Positions 4,266-50,030 of a stretch of 64,000 bases of DNA are shown here, piece after piece (the stretch's first letter is position 1; every line of letters begins with the position of its first letter). The notes under the pieces are model-generated. The model saw nothing but the letters and a program-made list of their open reading frames with translations. It did no database searches and was not told where the DNA came from. The translations under genes were made by a program, and so were the position numbers. Origin of the DNA: Minisyncoccota bacterium (GTDB lineage Bacteria; Patescibacteriota; Minisyncoccia; UBA6257; 2-01-FULL-56-20); the NCBI GenBank assembly GCA_041664245.1, contig JBAYLC010000003.1:394-64393 (forward strand), in the 5' to 3' direction.

Positions 4266-4751
4266 TCAAAATTGCTCAACCTCAAATGGATCAAACCGAT
4301 CCACTCTTTTCCCGTCAGTAGAAAATCGAATGACTGCTCGGAGTTTTACTCCTTCCAATATTTGCGGCAGCCATTTTTTATCCGCTACCCACATCCGATC
4401 AAAAGGAATCTCCTCAAAGAAAAACCATTCCGGCTCGCCCATTTCTTCCGAAGCCTTTAGTTCGCCGACCCAATCTTCAATCAAAAAAATGTGCAAAACA
4501 AATTTCGGTTCCTCGCCGAAAAAAGTTATTATAATCGCCACTTTTGTGATTTTAGCTCCGCGAACATCCAAGCCCGATTCTTCTTTAATCTCTCGAAAAA
4601 GTGCTTCTTCTTCCGTCTCGCCATCCTCTATCCGGCCGCCATATCCATTCTGATTGCCTGCTCCAAATCCCTTAAGTTTCAGAGGCAAGCAAACCCGACG
4701 GTCTTTCACGAAAAATCCTACTACCGCATGTTGCATTCTTACCTCCTTCAA
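4266..4751 (-). CDS. Nudix hydrolase (MutT-like)
   Basis: It has a canonical Nudix box, GGRIEDGETEEEALFREIKEESGL. A Shine-Dalgarno sequence (aaggagg) lies upstream of the start. Confidence 0.85.
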   Translation of the reverse strand: MKEVRMQHAVVGFFVKDRRVCLPLKLKGFGAGNQNGYGGRIEDGETEEEALFREIKEESGLDVRGAKITKVAIIITFFGEEPKFVLHIFLIEDWVGELKASEEMGEPEWFFFEEIPFDRMWVADKKWLPQILEGVKLRAVIRFSTDGKRVDRFDPFEVEQF

Positions 4752-11558: not shown

Positions 11559-11981
11559 TTAAAGGTAATGCTCGAATTCCTTCGGTAACCGGTTAATTTC
11601 GTTTAAATAAAAAATCATTCTTTTAAAATCACTGTTTCCCTCCAAATAGGTTTTTTCTTCTAATCCGCTGGCTTGATGATTGGAAATTTTTTCCCTCAAT
11701 TCCTTTAGGGCTTTTTCATGGCCTAAAATATAATTTCTTATTTCCTCCTCACTCATAAGCTCGCCAACAGTCGCAGTTTGATTTTCCCTCATCTTTTTTT
11801 CTACCCCTCTCATATGACTTTCTAAATCTCCGCTCCCAAAAGAACTTCCCACATCCTTTTGGTCGCCAAAAGATTGCTCCAGAAATATTTTTGGAGGGCT
11901 TTCAGTCTCCCCACCCTTCATTGGATTTACTATCTCTTTTTCCCCTCCGCTAATTTTTGGCTCTCCAACCTCCGAATTCAT
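11559..11981 (-). CDS. hypothetical protein (acidic, low complexity)
   Basis: This 140 aa ORF sits in an operon between polA and tsaE. Confidence 0.5.
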   Translation of the reverse strand: MNSEVGEPKISGGEKEIVNPMKGGETESPPKIFLEQSFGDQKDVGSSFGSGDLESHMRGVEKKMRENQTATVGELMSEEEIRNYILGHEKALKELREKISNHQASGLEEKTYLEGNSDFKRMIFYLNEINRLPKEFEHYL

Positions 11982-13004: not shown

Positions 13005-14009
13005 CTACAGGAGTTCTCCTTTTCTTTTTATTCCCAAATGCTCATACGCCGCCGGCATCACCAACCGCCCCGCCGACGATCGCTGCAAAAATCCCAAACT
13101 CATCAAATACGGTTCGTAGATATCCTCGATCACCCCTCTCTCTTCATTCAGGGCCGCCGCCAAAGTATTAATTCCCACCGGCCCCCCGCTGAATTTATTT
13201 ATGATTATTTCGAGTAGTCGCCGGTCGCTCGGCTCGAGTCCCCGCTCATCGATATCCAAAAGTTTTAATGTTTCGAACGCCATCTCTGCTTTTATTATTC
13301 CGTCGCCGTGAACCTCAGCATAATCTCTCGCTCGTTTTAAAAGTCGATTGGCAATTCTCGGCGTCGCCCGCGAAGCTTGGGCCAAGATATCCACCGCCTC
13401 CGACGCCACTTTCACTCCCAAAATCTTCGCCGATCGGCCAATTATAGTCTTGATATCTTTCGGGTCGTAATAATTAAGTCGAAACGTCGCCCCAAATCGC
13501 GATCGAAGCGGTCCCGAAAGCAAATTTTCTCTCGTTGTCGCCGCAATCAAAGTAAACGCTGGCAAGTCCAAAGTTAAACTCCGCGCGCTTGGCCCCTTGC
13601 CAACCATTAAATGAAGTTTTCGACTCTCCATCGCCGGATAGAGCACCTCTTCAATTAATCTATTCATCCGATGAGCTTCATCAATAAATAAAATCTCCCC
13701 CTCTTCGAGGTTAGTTAAAATCGCCGCCACATCCCCCGCCCGTTCCAAAGCCGGCCCGGAAGTAACCTTCACTGCCGCTCCAAATTCTTTTGCCACTAAA
13801 TATGCCAACGTTGTTTTACCTAATCCAGCCGGTCCGCAAAAAAGAAGGTGATCAATTGATTCATTTCTTTTTTTTGCCGCCGTCATAATAATCCGCAAAT
13901 TATCCTTTATCCTTTCCTGGCCAACATATTCATCCCAAGAAGTCGGCCGCAAAGCCTGATCAATCGTAGCATCCTCTTTATTCAAGTCATTTTTCTTCTC
14001 CAATTTCAT
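13005..14009 (-). CDS. ruvB: Holliday junction branch migration ATPase RuvB
   Basis: It carries Walker A (GPAGLGKTT), Walker B (LFIDEAHR) and sensor motifs. The track ORF extends to 14069, but MKLEKK at 14009 aligns with the RuvB N-terminus. Confidence 0.9.
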   Translation of the reverse strand: MKLEKKNDLNKEDATIDQALRPTSWDEYVGQERIKDNLRIIMTAAKKRNESIDHLLFCGPAGLGKTTLAYLVAKEFGAAVKVTSGPALERAGDVAAILTNLEEGEILFIDEAHRMNRLIEEVLYPAMESRKLHLMVGKGPSARSLTLDLPAFTLIAATTRENLLSGPLRSRFGATFRLNYYDPKDIKTIIGRSAKILGVKVASEAVDILAQASRATPRIANRLLKRARDYAEVHGDGIIKAEMAFETLKLLDIDERGLEPSDRRLLEIIINKFSGGPVGINTLAAALNEERGVIEDIYEPYLMSLGFLQRSSAGRLVMPAAYEHLGIKRKGELL

Positions 14010-14122
14010 AACTACAATATACAACTCCTGGGGAATCAAAGGCAAACAATCGACTTGACAAGCTTTCAAAATCCAACGAAAATAACGTTCCGTAGGTCAT
14101 TTTCGGTTCCAGAATCTCCTTC

Positions 14123-14151
14123 TTGACAAATTAAAAATAGTATGCTAGAAT
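14123..14151 (+). promoter_or_regulatory. sigma70-type promoter TTGACA-N17-TAGAAT
   Basis: The sequence matches a consensus -35 and a near-consensus -10 with 17 nt spacing. Confidence 0.6.
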
Positions 14152-14157
14152 ATCCAG

Positions 14158-14368
14158 GCAATTGAAGATAGTTGTTTTAAATCTGGGGTAAGGAATTAAT
14201 CCTAGTTAACGGACGGTTTGGCTCCGGCGAGACCCATCCTCGGAATAATTCTTCGCTCTTCTAAATTTCATTTAGAAGGGTCTCTCGCCGCCCTTCCCAT
14301 AAGGTTGGCCCCCAGATTTAAAATAACTACCCACCCGCTCAACTTCCAAGTTGGGTGGGTTTCGTTTT
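14158..14368 (+). ncRNA. candidate sRNA (~210 nt) between promoter and intrinsic terminator; rod-like long imperfect hairpin
   Basis: A 14 bp closing helix pairs ttttaaatctgggg with ccccagatttaaaa. An inner stem pairs ccggcgagaccc with gggtctctcgccg, and there is an apical hairpin ttctaaat/atttagaa. The 3' terminator is acccaccc..gggtgggt followed by a T-run. There is no ORF. Confidence 0.5.
14329..14368 (+). terminator. intrinsic terminator (acccaccc-loop-gggtgggt + TTCGTTTTT)
   Basis: An 8 bp GC-rich stem is followed by a T-run. Confidence 0.7.
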
Positions 14369-14463
14369 TCTCCCCTTCTCTAAATAAATCTCTACTTTTT
14401 CTGTAAGCGAGTATTTTTAGAAGCTTTTTGAATACTTCAAAGAAAAGCGACTTTTCTGTTTTT

Positions 14464-14568
14464 AGGGAGCTATCGGAAGTTTCAAAAGCTTGGTCCCCGT
14501 CACAACGGGGTTTTGAAACCGAGATGCAGGCGCGCTTAGCCGCTGGAAGCTAAGCGACGCCGGTCCCT
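14464..14568. ncRNA. unclassified structured RNA motif, copy A (P1 AGGGA/TCCCT; P2 9 bp; P3 hairpin after conserved GCTTGGT; conserved CCGAGAWGCAGGCGC; P4 hairpin with loop CGCTGGAA)
   Basis: It is a paralogue of the element at 49754-49860. All stems are preserved through compensatory changes. It lies in intergenic sequence directly 3' of the pilB stop. Strand is undetermined. Confidence 0.55.
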
Positions 14569-14591
14569 AAAAACAGAAGAGGAGCGCTCGC

Positions 14592-16277
14592 TTAAACCCC
14601 AATTAACCCCGTCACTTTCTCCACCTCATCAAAAGTCGTAATCCCATCTAAAACTTTTAGAATGCCATCTTCCTGCATCGTTACCATTCCCTGGCTAATT
14701 GCGAATTTTCGAAGCGTCACCTCTGAAGCTTCTTTCAAAATTATTTCTTCAAATTCAGCCCCAGCTTCCAAAAATTCAAAAATTCCAATTCTTCCCTTAT
14801 AACCAAAACCATTGCACTCATTACATCCCACCACTTCGTAAATTGTCCGCCCCGCCGATAAATCATATTTTTCTCTATTTACCCTCTCCGGCATTTTTTC
14901 TATCAGCTCTTTAATCTTATTTAGCTCTTCGGCAGCCAAATGCTTTTCTTTTTTGCACTTATCACAAAGCCTTCTTACTAGCCTTTGGGCAATAACCAAA
15001 CTAAGCGCCGGCCCGATTGTCGGCGTTTTTACTCCCAAATCAACCAATCGGGGAACTGCCCCGATCGCGTCGTTGGTATGGAGCGTCGAGAAAACCACGT
15101 GTCCGGTCAAGGCCGCCTGCATTGCAATCTCCGCAGTTTCCAAATCCCTAACCTCGCCAACCAAGATCACATCCGGATCCTGCCTAACAATTGCCCTCAA
15201 CCCTTTTGCAAAAGTGTATTGCGCGCTCGGGTCCACTTGTGTCTGTTCAATTCCCTCGAGCCGATATTCGATAGGATCTTCAATTGTAATAATTTTTGTT
15301 TCCGAGCTGGAGAGAGATTGCAAAAACGCGTAGAGCGTCGTTGTTTTTCCTGATCCGGTCGGTCCCGTATTTAAAACTAATCCGTTTGGCTTGCCTAATT
15401 GTTTTTTCACAATTTCCAAATCATCTTCCCGAAGTCCCAAATCTTTAAGTCCAACTTTTATCGCGTCAGGATTTAATATCCTCATCACAATCGTCTCGCC
15501 GAATTCCGAAGGAATAATTGAAACTCTCATCTCAATTTCCTTCCCTGCTACATTAATTGTGAATCGCCCGTCTTGCGGTTCATTGCGGACATTTATCTTC
15601 AGCCCTGAGAGAAGTTTAATCCGCGAAACTAATTTTTCATAACTTATTCTCGGTAAATTACTCAAAACATCATGAAGAAGACCGTCCACTCTGAATCGCA
15701 CCCTCACAATTTCTTCTCCGGCTTCGAAGTGGATATCCGATGCCCGGCTTATTAGTCCCTCTGCCAAAACCATTTCGAAAATATCCGTCGTGCTGAGTGT
15801 TGCAAAATTAGAACCCTCTAACTCCTCTTTAAATACTTGAATGCTAACCCATCGCTTTGTAAATTCGCCGAACTTTTGTTTGTCGATTCCCACCTTGCCG
15901 GTGATATCTTTCGCCTCCGGTGATACATATTCATAAAAAGCCCAAGCCTGTTTAACACTACTAAGCGAAGCTACAAAAACTTTAACTTTATATTTTTTTA
16001 ATTCCAAATCTTTTATCACCTCCGCCACTTCGGGGAAACGGGGATCCGTCGTCACCACCGCCAGCTTCTGAACGCTAATCTCCACTGCTGCCAGTTTAGC
16101 TTGCTTTGCCTTTTCCTCCGGAACTAATTTAACCGCCTCTAAGGCAATTGCCGCCTTACTTAAATCGAGGTAGGGATATCCTATCTCTTCTGCTAAACGC
16201 TTGGCAGCCCTTTCCTCCGAGTCTCTTCGGAGTCTCCCCAATTTCTGTTCAATCGGTATTGAGTTATTATTCGCCAT
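14592..16277 (-). CDS. pilB: type IV pilus assembly / type II secretion ATPase (GspE/PilB family)
   Basis: The 561 aa product has Walker A (GPTGSGKTTT), Asp/His boxes and a tetracysteine motif, CDKC..CNEC. Confidence 0.9.
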   Translation of the reverse strand: MANNNSIPIEQKLGRLRRDSEERAAKRLAEEIGYPYLDLSKAAIALEAVKLVPEEKAKQAKLAAVEISVQKLAVVTTDPRFPEVAEVIKDLELKKYKVKVFVASLSSVKQAWAFYEYVSPEAKDITGKVGIDKQKFGEFTKRWVSIQVFKEELEGSNFATLSTTDIFEMVLAEGLISRASDIHFEAGEEIVRVRFRVDGLLHDVLSNLPRISYEKLVSRIKLLSGLKINVRNEPQDGRFTINVAGKEIEMRVSIIPSEFGETIVMRILNPDAIKVGLKDLGLREDDLEIVKKQLGKPNGLVLNTGPTGSGKTTTLYAFLQSLSSSETKIITIEDPIEYRLEGIEQTQVDPSAQYTFAKGLRAIVRQDPDVILVGEVRDLETAEIAMQAALTGHVVFSTLHTNDAIGAVPRLVDLGVKTPTIGPALSLVIAQRLVRRLCDKCKKEKHLAAEELNKIKELIEKMPERVNREKYDLSAGRTIYEVVGCNECNGFGYKGRIGIFEFLEAGAEFEEIILKEASEVTLRKFAISQGMVTMQEDGILKVLDGITTFDEVEKVTGLIGV

Positions 16278-16337: not shown

Positions 16338-18974
16338 ATGAGCGCTTTTGAGACAGCACGAAACAAGGAATTAGAAGAAGCGGATACCGCCGCTAAAGAA
16401 AAAAAACCAACGCTGGAGACACCGCCAATAGGCAGTATAGTTACCGGCAGGGATGCGTTTGAAAAAGCCACGGTTACCGGCGAGTTAAAAGAAATAAAAA
16501 TTATTTATGGTGAATTATTTGGCGTAATTATTGATAAGGAAAAAGTTCAGCACAAAATTAAAATTGATCCAAGCGCCGAAATAATTATGCCCCCAAAGGC
16601 AGTGGAATCAGAAAACCAACCGCCGATTAGCAAGATTGAGAGAATAATCGACACCACCCCAAATGCAGTAACGCCCCTGGCAGAAACGGACATCGAATCA
16701 ATTCTCTTAGATCCAGATGGACCAACAGTTAAAAAACAAGTGGCCGACATCCTAGATTACGAAGAGTTATTAAAGGATGCGCCATCTGAAATAGAAAGAA
16801 AACTCCCGCCTCCACCGCCGCCGCCGAAAGCCGAAAATCCCGAACCAAAAATATCCAAAGCGCCTTTAGAAGCGGAAAGTAAACTAGCGGAAATTATTGA
16901 AGCCACTCCTATATCTAATTATGTTAGTGGTGCTGAAATAAAAGATATTCCACTCGAACCAGAACCAACACTAGTAAAAAATGAAGAAGCCGGAATAGTT
17001 GAAACCGCCACCGAAAAAAATGAAGCCACCACCCCGGAAAGTCCGGTCGAGGAAATCAATCGCCGCCTAGCCACTCTCAAAAATGAATTCGACACTAACG
17101 TCGGAAGTTTCTCCCCTGAAAGTTGGTCCGCGGGGAAAAAAGAGATAATTTCTATCCTGAGTAAAGACTTAGGCGTCCTTACTAACGACCTAGAAAACCC
17201 TCTTAAAGTTAGCTCAACCAAATTGCAACAGTTAACTGATTCTTTCTTCTATTCTCCTTCTGAATTTGAGAATAATTACGAAAAAATTAAGGGGGAAATC
17301 AGCTCAGAACTTAACCCCCAGCCGGAAAGCAAAGAATTTAAAGAGGAATCGGTCTCTAGAAATGAAGCGCCGTCAATAATTACAAAGGCAGAAGAGGCAA
17401 TAGAAACCGAAAAATTAAATGCGAAAACGGAGGTGGTGATTCCTCCTCTAGAAGAAAAAACGCCCGCTGATCTTAAAGAAGAGACTGTCCCCATTACTCC
17501 AGAGTTAACCGAAAAAACTCCGGCTGGAAAAATGGAATCTGCCCGGGCCGCCTATCTCGATCTTTATGAAAAAAACCGTCTCTTTCAAAAAAGATACGAG
17601 CGTGGAAGTTTATTCACCGAAGATGAGCAAGGTGAATGGACGCAAATTAAAAATGATCTGGAAATAAAAGGAGAAGAATACCGAGCGTCCCGCCAAGGAT
17701 ACTTAGAATCAACCCTCAAACAATTTGAAACCGAGCAGATCGACAAAGAACTTGCCTTCTTCAAACATGACGCTGATTTCCCTAACCTCCCCCTCGGCGC
17801 TAAGTTTGATGCTAATGAATACAAAAAATCTCGGCTCCAAGAAAAAGCCACCCTAGAATTAACCGCCGAATTTAAAAAACTGCACGACGCCAAAACCGAA
17901 AAAGCCGCTGAAAGTTACGGTCCAAAATTTTTAGAAAGAATCCGCGAATTTGGTCGGAACTACAACAAGCAGCCTCTTTATAGAAAATTAATGCTCGGCG
18001 GGGCAATTATGGGCGGTGGCATGCTAGCCGCTTTAGGCGGTGGTGGAATTGGTGCCGCTTTCGCCGCCGCTATTGGAGTTGGAAAAATTGCTCAAAGAGC
18101 CGTTTCTGGAACAGCTATGTTTGTCACCGTCGAAGCTCTCGTGAAAAGAAAGCAAGATAAAATCCTAGCCAAAAAAATCGAAAAAAACGAAATTTACTTC
18201 AAGGCTGAGATAGACGCCGCCGCCGAAAGATTCACTAACGGTGAAAAAGCCGGCGGCCTAATCGATTTCCTCAAAACTCAGGATAAAACTCTGGAAAATA
18301 GATACAACGAAAATCAGGCGGAATTAAAGAAAATGGAAAAAAGAATGGCTTATCGGCGAATATTCTATGCCGGAGCTGGCGGCCTAGTAATCGGCACCGG
18401 CCTCTTATCCTACGGCGTCCACAAGGCTATTAACGTTTTTGGATCTCTCACCGATCTTCACTCCGTTGAAGCCCCCAGTGGCCACAGTGGATTTGAGGCT
18501 CCGACTGATACCTCTCATGTTGCACCCAGTGAAACCATTCACTCAACTAGCCCCGATACCCTCTCCGCCAAACCGACACCCAATATTTTTGATGAACGTA
18601 TTAACGCCAAACCCGATCTCAGCAAAATCACTAATCTAGAATCGGAACTATCCCGCCCCATCGCTACCGTAAAACCCGGTGGCAGCTTCTGGGAAGCCGC
18701 TAAATCACTTCTCCATGAGAGTAAAATTTCGCCGGAAAAATTTGACGAAGCTTGGCGCCATTCCTTCGCCGAAATAAATGGTGTTAAAACTCCGTTAAGC
18801 GAACTTGGTCTCTCTCATCCCGGCGACCACCTTACTTTCATCGACGACCCCGGCAATCCCCACTTCGAAATTTCCGACCACCTCAAATTCGGTACTGATG
18901 AAGATTTGTTTAAATATCTCAAATCAGCCGGCAAAACTATCCCTCAATGGTTATCCGAAAAATTCGGAAAATGA
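16338..18974 (+). CDS. large hypothetical protein: acidic/Pro-rich disordered N-half (PPPPPPPK), two Gly-rich TM helices, ~170 aa C-terminal domain
   Basis: The 878 aa ORF is divergent from pilB and I recognised no domain in it. Confidence 0.6.
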   Translation: MSAFETARNKELEEADTAAKEKKPTLETPPIGSIVTGRDAFEKATVTGELKEIKIIYGELFGVIIDKEKVQHKIKIDPSAEIIMPPKAVESENQPPISKIERIIDTTPNAVTPLAETDIESILLDPDGPTVKKQVADILDYEELLKDAPSEIERKLPPPPPPPKAENPEPKISKAPLEAESKLAEIIEATPISNYVSGAEIKDIPLEPEPTLVKNEEAGIVETATEKNEATTPESPVEEINRRLATLKNEFDTNVGSFSPESWSAGKKEIISILSKDLGVLTNDLENPLKVSSTKLQQLTDSFFYSPSEFENNYEKIKGEISSELNPQPESKEFKEESVSRNEAPSIITKAEEAIETEKLNAKTEVVIPPLEEKTPADLKEETVPITPELTEKTPAGKMESARAAYLDLYEKNRLFQKRYERGSLFTEDEQGEWTQIKNDLEIKGEEYRASRQGYLESTLKQFETEQIDKELAFFKHDADFPNLPLGAKFDANEYKKSRLQEKATLELTAEFKKLHDAKTEKAAESYGPKFLERIREFGRNYNKQPLYRKLMLGGAIMGGGMLAALGGGGIGAAFAAAIGVGKIAQRAVSGTAMFVTVEALVKRKQDKILAKKIEKNEIYFKAEIDAAAERFTNGEKAGGLIDFLKTQDKTLENRYNENQAELKKMEKRMAYRRIFYAGAGGLVIGTGLLSYGVHKAINVFGSLTDLHSVEAPSGHSGFEAPTDTSHVAPSETIHSTSPDTLSAKPTPNIFDERINAKPDLSKITNLESELSRPIATVKPGGSFWEAAKSLLHESKISPEKFDEAWRHSFAEINGVKTPLSELGLSHPGDHLTFIDDPGNPHFEISDHLKFGTDEDLFKYLKSAGKTIPQWLSEKFGK

Positions 18975-48781: not shown

Positions 48782-49126
48782 TCAGATTTCAGATTTGAGC
48801 TTGTGAATGAAAGCTCGAAGATCGCTCGGGAGATATTTCTCGTCGATCTTGCCCGATTCGCGAATGATCACCGTCTTCAGAGCGTCCTTGTGTTCCTTCT
48901 CGGCCTTCTGATATTCCAGCATGTATTGCTGAAGATTTTGGACCATGCCGTCGACGTAGGCCTGTGAATTCTTGAACACTTCGTGTTGCACTTCCACCTG
49001 TCTCGGCGCGAAGAACTTGTACATAAAGAAGTCATTGCCTTGGCCGATCCAGGTAAGAACCAGAACCACAACCAGGACTCCAACCACTATGCCAACGATC
49101 TTCTTTGTGGTGATTTCGGATTCCAC
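48782..49126 (-). CDS. small membrane-anchored protein, GC-rich gene
   Basis: The 114 aa product has an N-terminal TM helix. Its composition matches the adjacent lipoprotein gene. Confidence 0.55.
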   Translation of the reverse strand: MESEITTKKIVGIVVGVLVVVLVLTWIGQGNDFFMYKFFAPRQVEVQHEVFKNSQAYVDGMVQNLQQYMLEYQKAEKEHKDALKTVIIRESGKIDEKYLPSDLRAFIHKLKSEI

Positions 49127-49349
49127 GTTTTTCTCCTTGTCTGCCGGTATTTCTCCGACAAGAAATGGGTTATTGCCTATATATTTAGTCAGTCAATCTA
49201 ATTATCAAATTATCAAGTTGCCCTAATAGTATAGCACGAATACTATCACTTTGTCAAGTGGCACTTTTGAGTTCATTTCCGTCCATCTATCACCCCTCTT
49301 CTGACAATAAAAGCCTTGGTTTACAAGGCTTTTATTTCAATTCCGTCGA

Positions 49350-49669
49350 TGTGGAGATGGGCGGAATCGAACCGCCGTGTAAAAGTAATATCAGTTAGCC
49401 ATCTACGAGCGTAGTTTCGCCGAAGCGAGACAAAGTTTGCTCTATTAGTTTAGTTCCGCTCCCCTAGAGCGAAAGAACAGAACGAGCCTCCTTATATAAG
49501 ACCGGACTTAGCCTAAGAGGCCCAGACCAGCCGATCCTCCGGCGTTATGCGTAAGCAAACGCTGGAGCTGCAACTTTTTGGTTGGCAGATATAAATTGTT
49601 TGCCAGATTAACGAGTTAGCGCTCGGCTCGCCGACTAATGACCTACTCCTATCGAAGCCATACATCCCC
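49350..49669 (-). ncRNA. ssrA: transfer-messenger RNA (tmRNA, ssrA)
   Basis: The 5' end is GGGGATGTATGGCTTCGATAGGAG and the 3' tRNA-like end is GGCGGTTCGATTCCGCCCATCTCCA. The acceptor pairs GGGGATG with CATCTCC. The internal tag reading frame ends ..AAPAFAYA-TAA. A terminator hairpin follows at 49302-49332. Confidence 0.85.
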
Positions 49670-49753
49670 ATATTCAATTTTCCCCTTTATTATACTAGAT
49701 ATCCCCAAAAAAGGCAAATTCACCTTTTTGCTCTCTGAGCGAGTACTTTTACT

Positions 49754-49860
49754 AGGAAGCTTTCGGAGGTATTGTGAGCTTGGTGTCCCGCTTTTACGGG
49801 ACTCACAATGCCGAGAAGCAGGCGCGTTTTGCCGCTGGAAGCAAAACGCCGCCGGTTCCT
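49754..49860. ncRNA. unclassified structured RNA motif, copy B (P1 AGGAA/TTCCT; P2 8 bp; P3 hairpin; conserved GCTTGGT and CCGAGAAGCAGGCGC; P4 hairpin with loop CGCTGGAA)
   Basis: It is a paralogue of 14464-14568 with covarying stems. It lies between the tmRNA promoter and a plus-strand terminator at 50031-50062. Confidence 0.55.
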
Positions 49861-50030
49861 AATAAAAAATACGAGCGAAAAGTTATCCACAGCCCCCCTT
49901 GACCGCTTCGCCTATTATTTTAAAATTAAGTTAGCTCATCGAAAACCTACTCCCGTTTGATATATAAGCGAGACTACTCGCACTCAGTATTGAAATCAAT
50001 TGCAGATTCTAATCTGCACCAACTATATAA

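Follow-up and report, generated by a model that had tools for sequence, protein, structure and literature searches.

An intergenic transcription unit between ruvB and pilB

The stretch of DNA analysed here (64,000 nucleotides of contig JBAYLC010000003.1 from a Minisyncoccota bacterium; hereafter the window) encodes on its minus strand a RuvB protein (13005-14009) and a PilB/GspE-type ATPase (T2SSE; 14592-16277), both recognised with Pfam, and the two genes are separated by a gap of 582 nt in which gene callers place no gene. Within this gap, at 14123-14368 on the plus strand, lies the candidate small RNA (sRNA) gene that is the subject of this study. An earlier inspection of the letters alone (the sequence-only reading) had singled out the interval as a promoter-to-terminator unit free of open reading frames (ORFs), the product of which would fold into a long irregular rod recalling 6S RNA. 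Conservation, covariation and strand asymmetry, together with a promoter conserved alongside the RNA, strongly support the existence of such a unit; the rod and the resemblance to 6S RNA find no support. As to the absence of ORFs, the gene callers agree, but a mechanical ORF list does include two frames with TTG start codons: one of 31 aa on the minus strand (14066-14161), which overlaps the sRNA promoter, and one of 62 aa on the plus strand (14218-14406). A coding reading of the latter was rejected, as family members differ by insertions and deletions in hairpins P4 and P5 and the variation tracks base-pairing, not codons.

The promoter is of the sigma-70 type, with a -35 element TTGACA (14123-14128), a 17-nt spacer and an extended -10 element TGcTAGAAT (14143-14151, plus strand); 11 of the 12 consensus positions are matched, and the upstream TG extends the TTGACA-N17-TAGAAT promoter already proposed for 14123-14151. 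Only two promoters of the TTGAC[AT]-N17/18-TGnTAnnnT grade are present in the whole 64 kb window, and that of the sRNA appears to be among the strongest there. Downstream, the strong intrinsic terminator that had been predicted is confirmed as a 12 bp stem (14333-14360) closed by a 4-nt loop and followed by the U-rich tail UUUCGUUUUU, the whole extending over 14333-14368 on the plus strand. When the 5′ end is placed by the -10 box and the 3′ end by the terminator U tract, a primary transcript of ~211 nt (14158-14368, plus strand) is predicted. A second near-consensus promoter, at 49257-49228 on the minus strand, drives a 114-aa ORF (48782-49126) with an AAGGAG Shine-Dalgarno sequence.

The minimum free energy (MFE) of the predicted transcript is -86.6 kcal/mol, as compared with -53.7 +/- 4.7 kcal/mol for dinucleotide shuffles (z = -7.0; none of 200 shuffles is as good), while the reverse complement of the same interval folds worse (-75.7 kcal/mol, z = -4.8). 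The conserved structured core, which is the unit matched by covariance model R1 (see below), occupies 161 nt (14169-14329, plus strand) and is delimited by the closing helix P1, of 20 bp in the window, the 5′ arm of which (14169-14188) pairs with 14310-14329. This helix, present both in the MFE fold and among the covarying pairs, corresponds to the closing helix of the sequence-only reading. Inside it, P2 is formed by GGAAUUAAUCC (14191-14202) and GGAAUAAUUCUU (14242-14253), and is again seen in the MFE fold and by covariation. An asymmetric internal loop, the 5′ strand of which (14203-14210) contains a conserved YUAG in the consensus, leads from P2 to P3 (14211-14239), a hairpin with a GGA/UCC base, a 1x2 internal loop, 5+2 bp and a C(UCCG)G tetraloop; judging from the aligned sequences, P3 is the most conserved module of the family. 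P4 (14255-14281), supported by the MFE fold as well as by covariation, is the ttctaaat/atttagaa hairpin that had been noticed earlier, and is followed in the window MFE fold by P5 (14287-14309), a hairpin of variable sequence and length that is missing from many members.

The MFE fold of the window thus reproduces P1-P4 of the family consensus, and the molecule is a multi-branch structure (P1, P2-P3, P4, P5) with no single long rod. The rod depended on an internal helix between ccggcgagaccc and gggtctctcgccg that is absent from the MFE fold and shows no excess covariation in 41 homologues (47.4% of cells pair, vs 46.9% in shuffles); the segment assigned to it forms the conserved local hairpin P3 instead. 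We reject the rod on this basis.

A covarying RNA family of Patescibacteria

The family was collected by scanning metagenomes with the P3 core pattern, and the homologue counts given from here on are drawn from the matches listed. At least 119 contigs, mostly from groundwater and sediment, carry the pattern; ~4 of them are chance matches, being G+C-rich and lacking any other family feature. RuvB places the window in the Patescibacteria, its best genome matches being metagenome-assembled genomes (MAGs) 82-65% identical to it, which include 'Parcubacteria group bacterium Gr01-1014_20' and a Candidatus Colwellbacteria MAG. The noncoding stretch upstream of ruvB is kept in the closest genomes (nhmmer; alignment A1), where both the promoter hexamers and the core GGAYG..UGGYUYCGRC..C..UCCUC are conserved, and in more than 100 Patescibacteria contigs the sRNA is kept between ruvB and pilB. 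The family is thus conserved in Parcubacteria-type members of the Patescibacteria, also known as the candidate phyla radiation (CPR).

Nearly all members listed share a common architecture made up of the promoter, P1, P2, P3 with C(UYCG)G, usually P4, and a variable P5. Across the family P1 spans 20-26 bp; its core reads CUGNGGGC/GCCCNCAG, the N position of which covaries. The window displays the complete set of family features, namely the P1 core, P2 as GGAAUU.../...AAUUCU, P3 as GGAYG...UYCG...C-NN-UCCUC, a full R1 score and, a short way upstream of P1, a TTGACA-17-TGnTAnnnT promoter of its own. The periphery is far more plastic: minimal members (L087, L101 and L129) measure only ~105-120 nt and lack both P4 and P5; in others P1 and P2 are set apart by a hairpin or by ~110 nt of inserted sequence (the CUGUAGGCAA group; L147 and L184); and in some the P4 sequence is swapped for unrelated G-C-rich hairpins. 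In distant members the tip of P3 is replaced by a 13-21 nt insert, with the base AGGACG...CUAUCCU or GGGUAG...CUAUUCC kept. As the tip is replaceable and the base is not lost, we take the tetraloop to be structural, and the P3 base and loops to be the conserved functional part.

The promoter is a family trait as well. In 61 of 74 homologues a TTGAC[AT]-17/18-TG-n-TAnnnT element was found no more than 120 nt upstream of P1; the TG is present in all 61, and the spacer is of 17 nt in 56 of them. The -10 element mostly ends 7-18 nt before modelled P1, and up to 55 nt before it where there are 5′ inserts. At the other end, a U-rich run directly follows P1 in 24 of the 74 homologues, and the others, the window included, possess a separate terminator hairpin.

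The secondary structure was assessed with two alignments. In the first (A2), a structure-blind MAFFT alignment of 41 members, the RNAalifold consensus has 46 pairs, 34 of which show compensatory double changes, and the P5 region is variable. Covariance model R1, built from A2, matches the window at 14169-14329 on the plus strand over the full model length (125.8 bits; E = 4e-33, covariance-model E-values being rough), as its only credible copy; on the minus strand the interval reaches 22.9 bits. In the second alignment (A4), 74 non-redundant matches were aligned to the model: 94.7% of pairing cells are occupied by pairs, vs 77.1% after column shuffling and 38-55% with slid partners, and changes on both sides are found in 34 of 45 pairs, amounting to 621 double-change cells, with none of 500 shuffles reaching any of these measures. 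P1 has 18 compensatory pairs among 21 modelled (93.4% paired), the N pair of its core being GC in 43, UA in 17 and CG in 8 sequences; P2 has seven among nine (93.2% paired); P3, which is 98.5% paired, has four; and all five modelled pairs of P4 are compensatory. When the A4 columns are ranked by mutual information, the top nine places are all taken by helix pairs of the model.

Among the homologues, G-U/U-G pairs greatly outnumber A-C/C-A mismatches (351 vs 59), and this excess, together with the UNCG tetraloops, identifies the plus strand as the RNA strand. The same figures weigh on the notion that the locus is a DNA palindrome or a mobile repeat resembling a miniature inverted-repeat transposable element (MITE), with no function at the RNA level. 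P1 is admittedly a long inverted repeat, and a dispersed structured repeat (Element 2, described below) adjoins the gene; but the sRNA is present in a single copy in the window, holds a fixed genomic position over deep divergence, is absent from viral contigs, in which the core pattern has no copy, and bears an oriented promoter that is co-conserved with it. Strand asymmetry and promoter co-conservation largely refute this explanation, which we regard as extremely improbable.

In the consensus, which is a 3-4-way junction, P1 and P2 are joined on the 5′ side by a median of 2 nt, the loop separating P2 from P3 has median strand lengths of 8 x 2 nt, P2 and P4 are a median of 5 nt apart, and the segment from P4 to P1 ranges from 4 to 52 nt. 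An action by base-pairing in trans was also considered, in which the anti-Shine-Dalgarno-like UCCUC and AACCUCUUU would block ribosome-binding sites. The family does have two conserved CCUC stretches and a stand-alone promoter-terminator unit, as such an sRNA would; however, both stretches are paired (in the P3 base and in the P4 stem) and hence not exposed, and the P4 sequence is replaced or missing in some members. Moreover, base-pairing sRNAs rarely retain an elaborate covarying multi-helix scaffold over such evolutionary distance. We therefore consider this mode of action improbable.

Two further covariation patterns were observed. At P1 position 14182/14316, C-A, U-G and U-A alternate (ACCUG/CAGAU, AUCUG/CAGGU and AUCUG/CAGAU), as would be expected if a wobble-like geometry were favoured there; the position may be a site of recognition. 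In the internal loop of P3, position 14214 covaries in a noncanonical manner with 14235-14236 (Y4/N26, with the second 3′ nucleotide; UC in 30, CA in 27 and CC in 14 sequences), which suggests a specific non-Watson-Crick interaction.

A second model (R2), built from 74 non-redundant sequences, extends the family further. It yields weak matches of 18-43 bits, placed and oriented upstream of ruvB as in the other members, in distant Patescibacteria MAGs labelled Paceibacterota, Moraniibacteriota, Minisyncoccia, Patescibacteria group and, marginally, Ryanbacteria, the taxon labels of many MAG records being coarse; in ~55 ruvB loci from outside the CPR it has no match. One R1 match in Blautia (L060) was discarded: it is a long inverted repeat that matches P1 only and lacks the core, and it disappears with R2.

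Genomic context and autonomy

Convergent pilB lies downstream of the sRNA gene in 89 of the 92 loci with enough flanking sequence; on the upstream side there is a divergent ruvB in 84 of 93 loci and an LTD-domain gene in its place in four more. This arrangement spans RuvB identities of 52-82%, although sampling by the P3 pattern and around ruvB biases the apparent synteny, as it does the apparent invariance of the RNA. Such extreme synteny speaks for a cis or cis-antisense element, which would insulate or terminate pilB, or regulate ruvB by promoter interference or by base-pairing to read-through mRNA, and so does the presence of the ruvB start codon inside the sRNA promoter spacer at several loci (e.g. 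L094). In the window, however, the ruvB ATG and the -35 box are 113 nt apart, and four covarying helices with a conserved internal loop would be superfluous for antisense or insulator action. Furthermore, in L136 and L161 the sRNA gene is inverted between the same two genes and retains its own TTGACA-17-TGcTATAGT promoter and a U7 tail; in L147 it is found amid unrelated genes (HIT, DUF5666 and an extracytoplasmic function sigma factor); the LTD gene replaces ruvB in the four loci mentioned above; and there is no consistent antisense promoter directed towards ruvB on the minus strand inside the sRNA gene, a weak match being found in just 8 of 100 members. We therefore regard a local role in cis as rather unlikely. 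The inversions, the context of L147 and the lack of a consistent embedded antisense promoter show that the sRNA gene is a self-contained, autonomous unit.

At compact loci such as L094, L102, L105 and L112, where the start codon of ruvB falls within the 17-nt spacer of the sRNA promoter, the two divergent genes overlap at the level of the promoter, and transcription of ruvB must cross, or start inside, the sRNA gene; a local transcriptional interplay may thus exist at such loci. Between pilB and the inverted sRNA gene of L161 there is an extra near-consensus promoter (TTGACA-16-TGcTATACT) followed by a short G-C hairpin (4648-4700), which, to judge by these signals, may give rise to another tiny transcript.

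Two classes of element were considered from the neighbourhood and rejected. A cis-acting leader or riboswitch is at odds with the convergent orientation of the downstream gene in the same 89 loci, ruvB being located downstream on the same strand only in the inverted L136 and L161. A retron msr-msd RNA does not agree with neighbours that encode RuvB and PilB/T2SSE, the syntenic loci having no reverse transcriptase; more generally, no reverse transcriptase, transposase or Cas gene was found near the sRNA gene, either in the window or in the syntenic neighbourhoods.

Next to the sRNA gene, between its terminator and the pilB stop codon, the window contains a second structured element of ~130 nt (Element 2; 14452-14582, plus strand) with 18-nt terminal inverted repeats. 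The other of its two copies in the window (49741-49880, plus strand) is located just upstream of, and divergent from, the transfer-messenger RNA (tmRNA) gene, which Rfam places at 49349-49669 on the minus strand with 128 bits. Elsewhere, Element 2 was found in L117 (3425-3567, minus), L084 (5150-5296, plus), L001 (2375-2500, minus) and L089 (~1678-1796, plus). The consensus of five copies is a three-way junction with compensatory changes in 34 of its 46 pairs, and its loops GAAGCUAUCGGAGG, GCUUGG, CCGAGAUGCAGG, CCGCUGGA and CGCCGGUUCU are strongly conserved. Element 2 matches no Rfam family and was not encountered in viral contigs; its candidate identities are a small-RNA gene that has become dispersed, a ribozyme-like module and a structured MITE. 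Rfam further identifies eight tRNA genes elsewhere in the window. Two ORFs, of 878 aa (16338-18974, plus) and 140 aa (11559-11981, minus), have no Pfam match at E <= 0.001.

Proposed function and relation to known RNA classes

Searches with Rfam 15 of the whole window (gathering threshold) and of 14000-14620 (E <= 10) gave no family matching the sRNA region, nor did any family match 20 homologous loci (E <= 5) or nine of the weak-match loci (gathering threshold). Permissive output at the sRNA loci consisted of noise only (STnc350, MIR478, PVT1), and none of the 6S, signal recognition particle (SRP), RNase P, Y RNA, ribozyme and riboswitch families had a match at the window region or in the 20 loci. 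In the literature searched on noncoding RNAs (ncRNAs), 6S RNA and structured RNA motifs of CPR, Patescibacteria or Parcubacteria, this RNA is not described. Smaller motifs were likewise rejected, by eye only: the conserved nucleotides do not fit a K-turn, loop E, SRP helix 8, group II domain 5 or tRNA T-arm. From the sequence evidence as a whole we are highly confident that the locus is a real structured RNA gene, the family of which is absent from Rfam 15.

A functional counterpart of 6S RNA or of mycobacterial Ms1 would mimic an open promoter and sequester the sigma-70 RNA polymerase holoenzyme until freed by product-RNA synthesis. The 161-nt core and ~210-nt transcript are of a fitting size; like 6S RNA (ssrS, RF00013) and Ms1, the sRNA is a stand-alone gene with a strong promoter, its own terminator, a length of ~160-210 nt and ends joined in a long closing helix, here with G-C-rich pairs beside the junction; its two main arms, of ~22 bp (P1) and ~20 bp (P2+P3), are about as long as those of 6S RNA; and no 6S match was obtained in any Patescibacteria sequence examined here, so that the niche may be vacant. 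By analogy with 6S RNA and Ms1, the sRNA is probably abundant and trans-acting. Yet its size (within ~150-200 nt), independence and closing stem are generic features, whereas those that define 6S RNA are lacking. There is no match to RF00013 or to lineage-specific 6S models, even at the permissive thresholds given above (E <= 10 for the window region and E <= 5 for the 20 homologues). Where 6S RNA is a rod interrupted by a large two-sided bubble at its centre, the sRNA has a multi-branch junction; its 5′ side has a median of ~2 nt and thus offers no single-stranded template strand and no 6S-type bubble, its 3′ side consists of folded hairpins, and the sole sizeable internal loop is the 8 x 2 nt one. 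In addition, the minimal members span only ~105-120 nt, and one hairpin arm, P3, is strongly conserved in sequence, which is atypical of 6S RNAs; these reportedly conserve shape rather than sequence. The sRNA is not a 6S RNA, and we find it very unlikely that it acts as one.

A free-standing ribozyme or orphan aptamer would agree with the conserved junction nucleotides, the asymmetric internal loop and the noncanonical covariation in P3, which suggest a defined tertiary fold. Against this, no Rfam 15 ribozyme or riboswitch matches, the repeated or mobile context typical of small self-cleaving ribozymes is missing, and ~97% of the loci have no downstream gene in the same orientation, which excludes a cis riboswitch. 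A catalytic or ligand-sensing RNA thus seems to us very improbable.

None of these rival explanations is favoured by the tests that were run. What we consider the best explanation, and somewhat more probable than all its alternatives taken together, is that 14123-14368 on the plus strand is an autonomous gene for a stable, trans-acting and probably protein-binding RNA of a new Patescibacteria family. The grounds for a trans-acting ribonucleoprotein (RNP) are the burial of both ends in a long helix, a hallmark of stable RNAs, the strong-looking promoter, the conservation of the top of P1, P2, the internal loop and the P3 base, and the gain and loss of peripheral hairpins. The extended -10 sigma-70 promoter is placed to fire a few nucleotides before P1, a closing helix of 20-22 bp, and P1 encloses a multi-helix junction with an invariant P2-internal loop-P3 arm and optional P4, P5 or 5′ inserts; transcription is predicted to stop at the terminator, or at the U run right after P1. 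According to this proposal, the resulting RNA would be stable and abundant and would act in trans as an RNP in which the P2-P3 module binds protein or forms the tertiary core, a role akin to those of SRP, 6S or Y RNAs. To the RNP mechanism specifically, which is suggested by analogy, we give somewhat less than even credence.

Several points weigh against an autonomous, trans-acting RNA. The transcript, both of its ends and its abundance are predictions, and the RNP mechanism is drawn from analogy only, with a putative partner protein, ligand and target. Collection by the P3 pattern inflates the invariance of P3, and the sampling leans towards one clade and possibly one genomic context. Being fitted to the model, A4 leans towards the structure in its pair counts and in its mutual-information ranking; the unbiased support comes from the structure-blind A2, which gives the same picture. 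Finally, the near-perfect synteny with pilB and ruvB could point to a local role in cis.

A substantial part of bacterial diversity belongs to the Patescibacteria, whose genomes are very small and whose members have nearly all escaped cultivation. Essentially no lineage-specific noncoding RNAs of the group were found in the literature searched. Being strongly conserved, backed by covariation, equipped with a strong promoter and held at one locus down to ~52% RuvB identity, the RNA described here is a promising candidate for one of the group's core cellular RNAs. More speculatively, and with considerably more doubt than confidence, it might be the RNA subunit of an unrecognised housekeeping RNP, ancestral to much of the Parcubacteria/Paceibacteria radiation and representing either a 6S/Ms1 analogue or a new RNP; were this so, its retention in genomes of ~1 Mb stripped of most regulatory machinery would imply an essential role. 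In practical terms, the alignment and covariance model enable genome annotation, metatranscriptome searches and pull-down or structural work, and a tempting mis-annotation as 6S RNA is removed.

Among known systems, SRP RNA (4.5S/ffs) offers a second point of comparison, in that the minimal members are irregular hairpins of ~105-120 nt in which the module of apical tetraloop and internal loops is the most conserved part; by analogy, this likeness would be that of a housekeeping-style stable RNA. SRP RNA, as exemplified by Escherichia coli 4.5S RNA, possesses a GNAR tetraloop with symmetric and asymmetric loops bound by Ffh, none of which is present in the sRNA: its apical module combines a UNCG tetraloop (UYCG) with 1x2 and 8x2 loops that differ in size and sequence from those of SRP helix 8, as judged by inspection, and no small or large SRP model of Rfam matches it. 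With Y RNA and YrlA it shares ends joined in a long conserved helix that contains a conserved non-Watson-Crick position, as well as variable internal modules; unlike them, it lacks a tRNA-like module and any match in Rfam, and nothing points to a nearby Ro/Rsr protein.

The closest parallel in kind is with the orphan ncRNA classes of Weinberg and Breaker (the raiA motif, Bacteroidales-1 and Acido-Lenti-1), which are likewise defined by covariation, confined to one lineage and provided with their own promoter and terminator. The sRNA differs from these classes in sequence and structure, has no match in Rfam 15 and belongs to CPR hosts, a group that, in the literature searched, is essentially unrepresented in comparative-genomics surveys of ncRNAs. 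Set beside them, it is a new and widespread family of branched, structured sRNAs of the Patescibacteria, and not a 6S-like rod.

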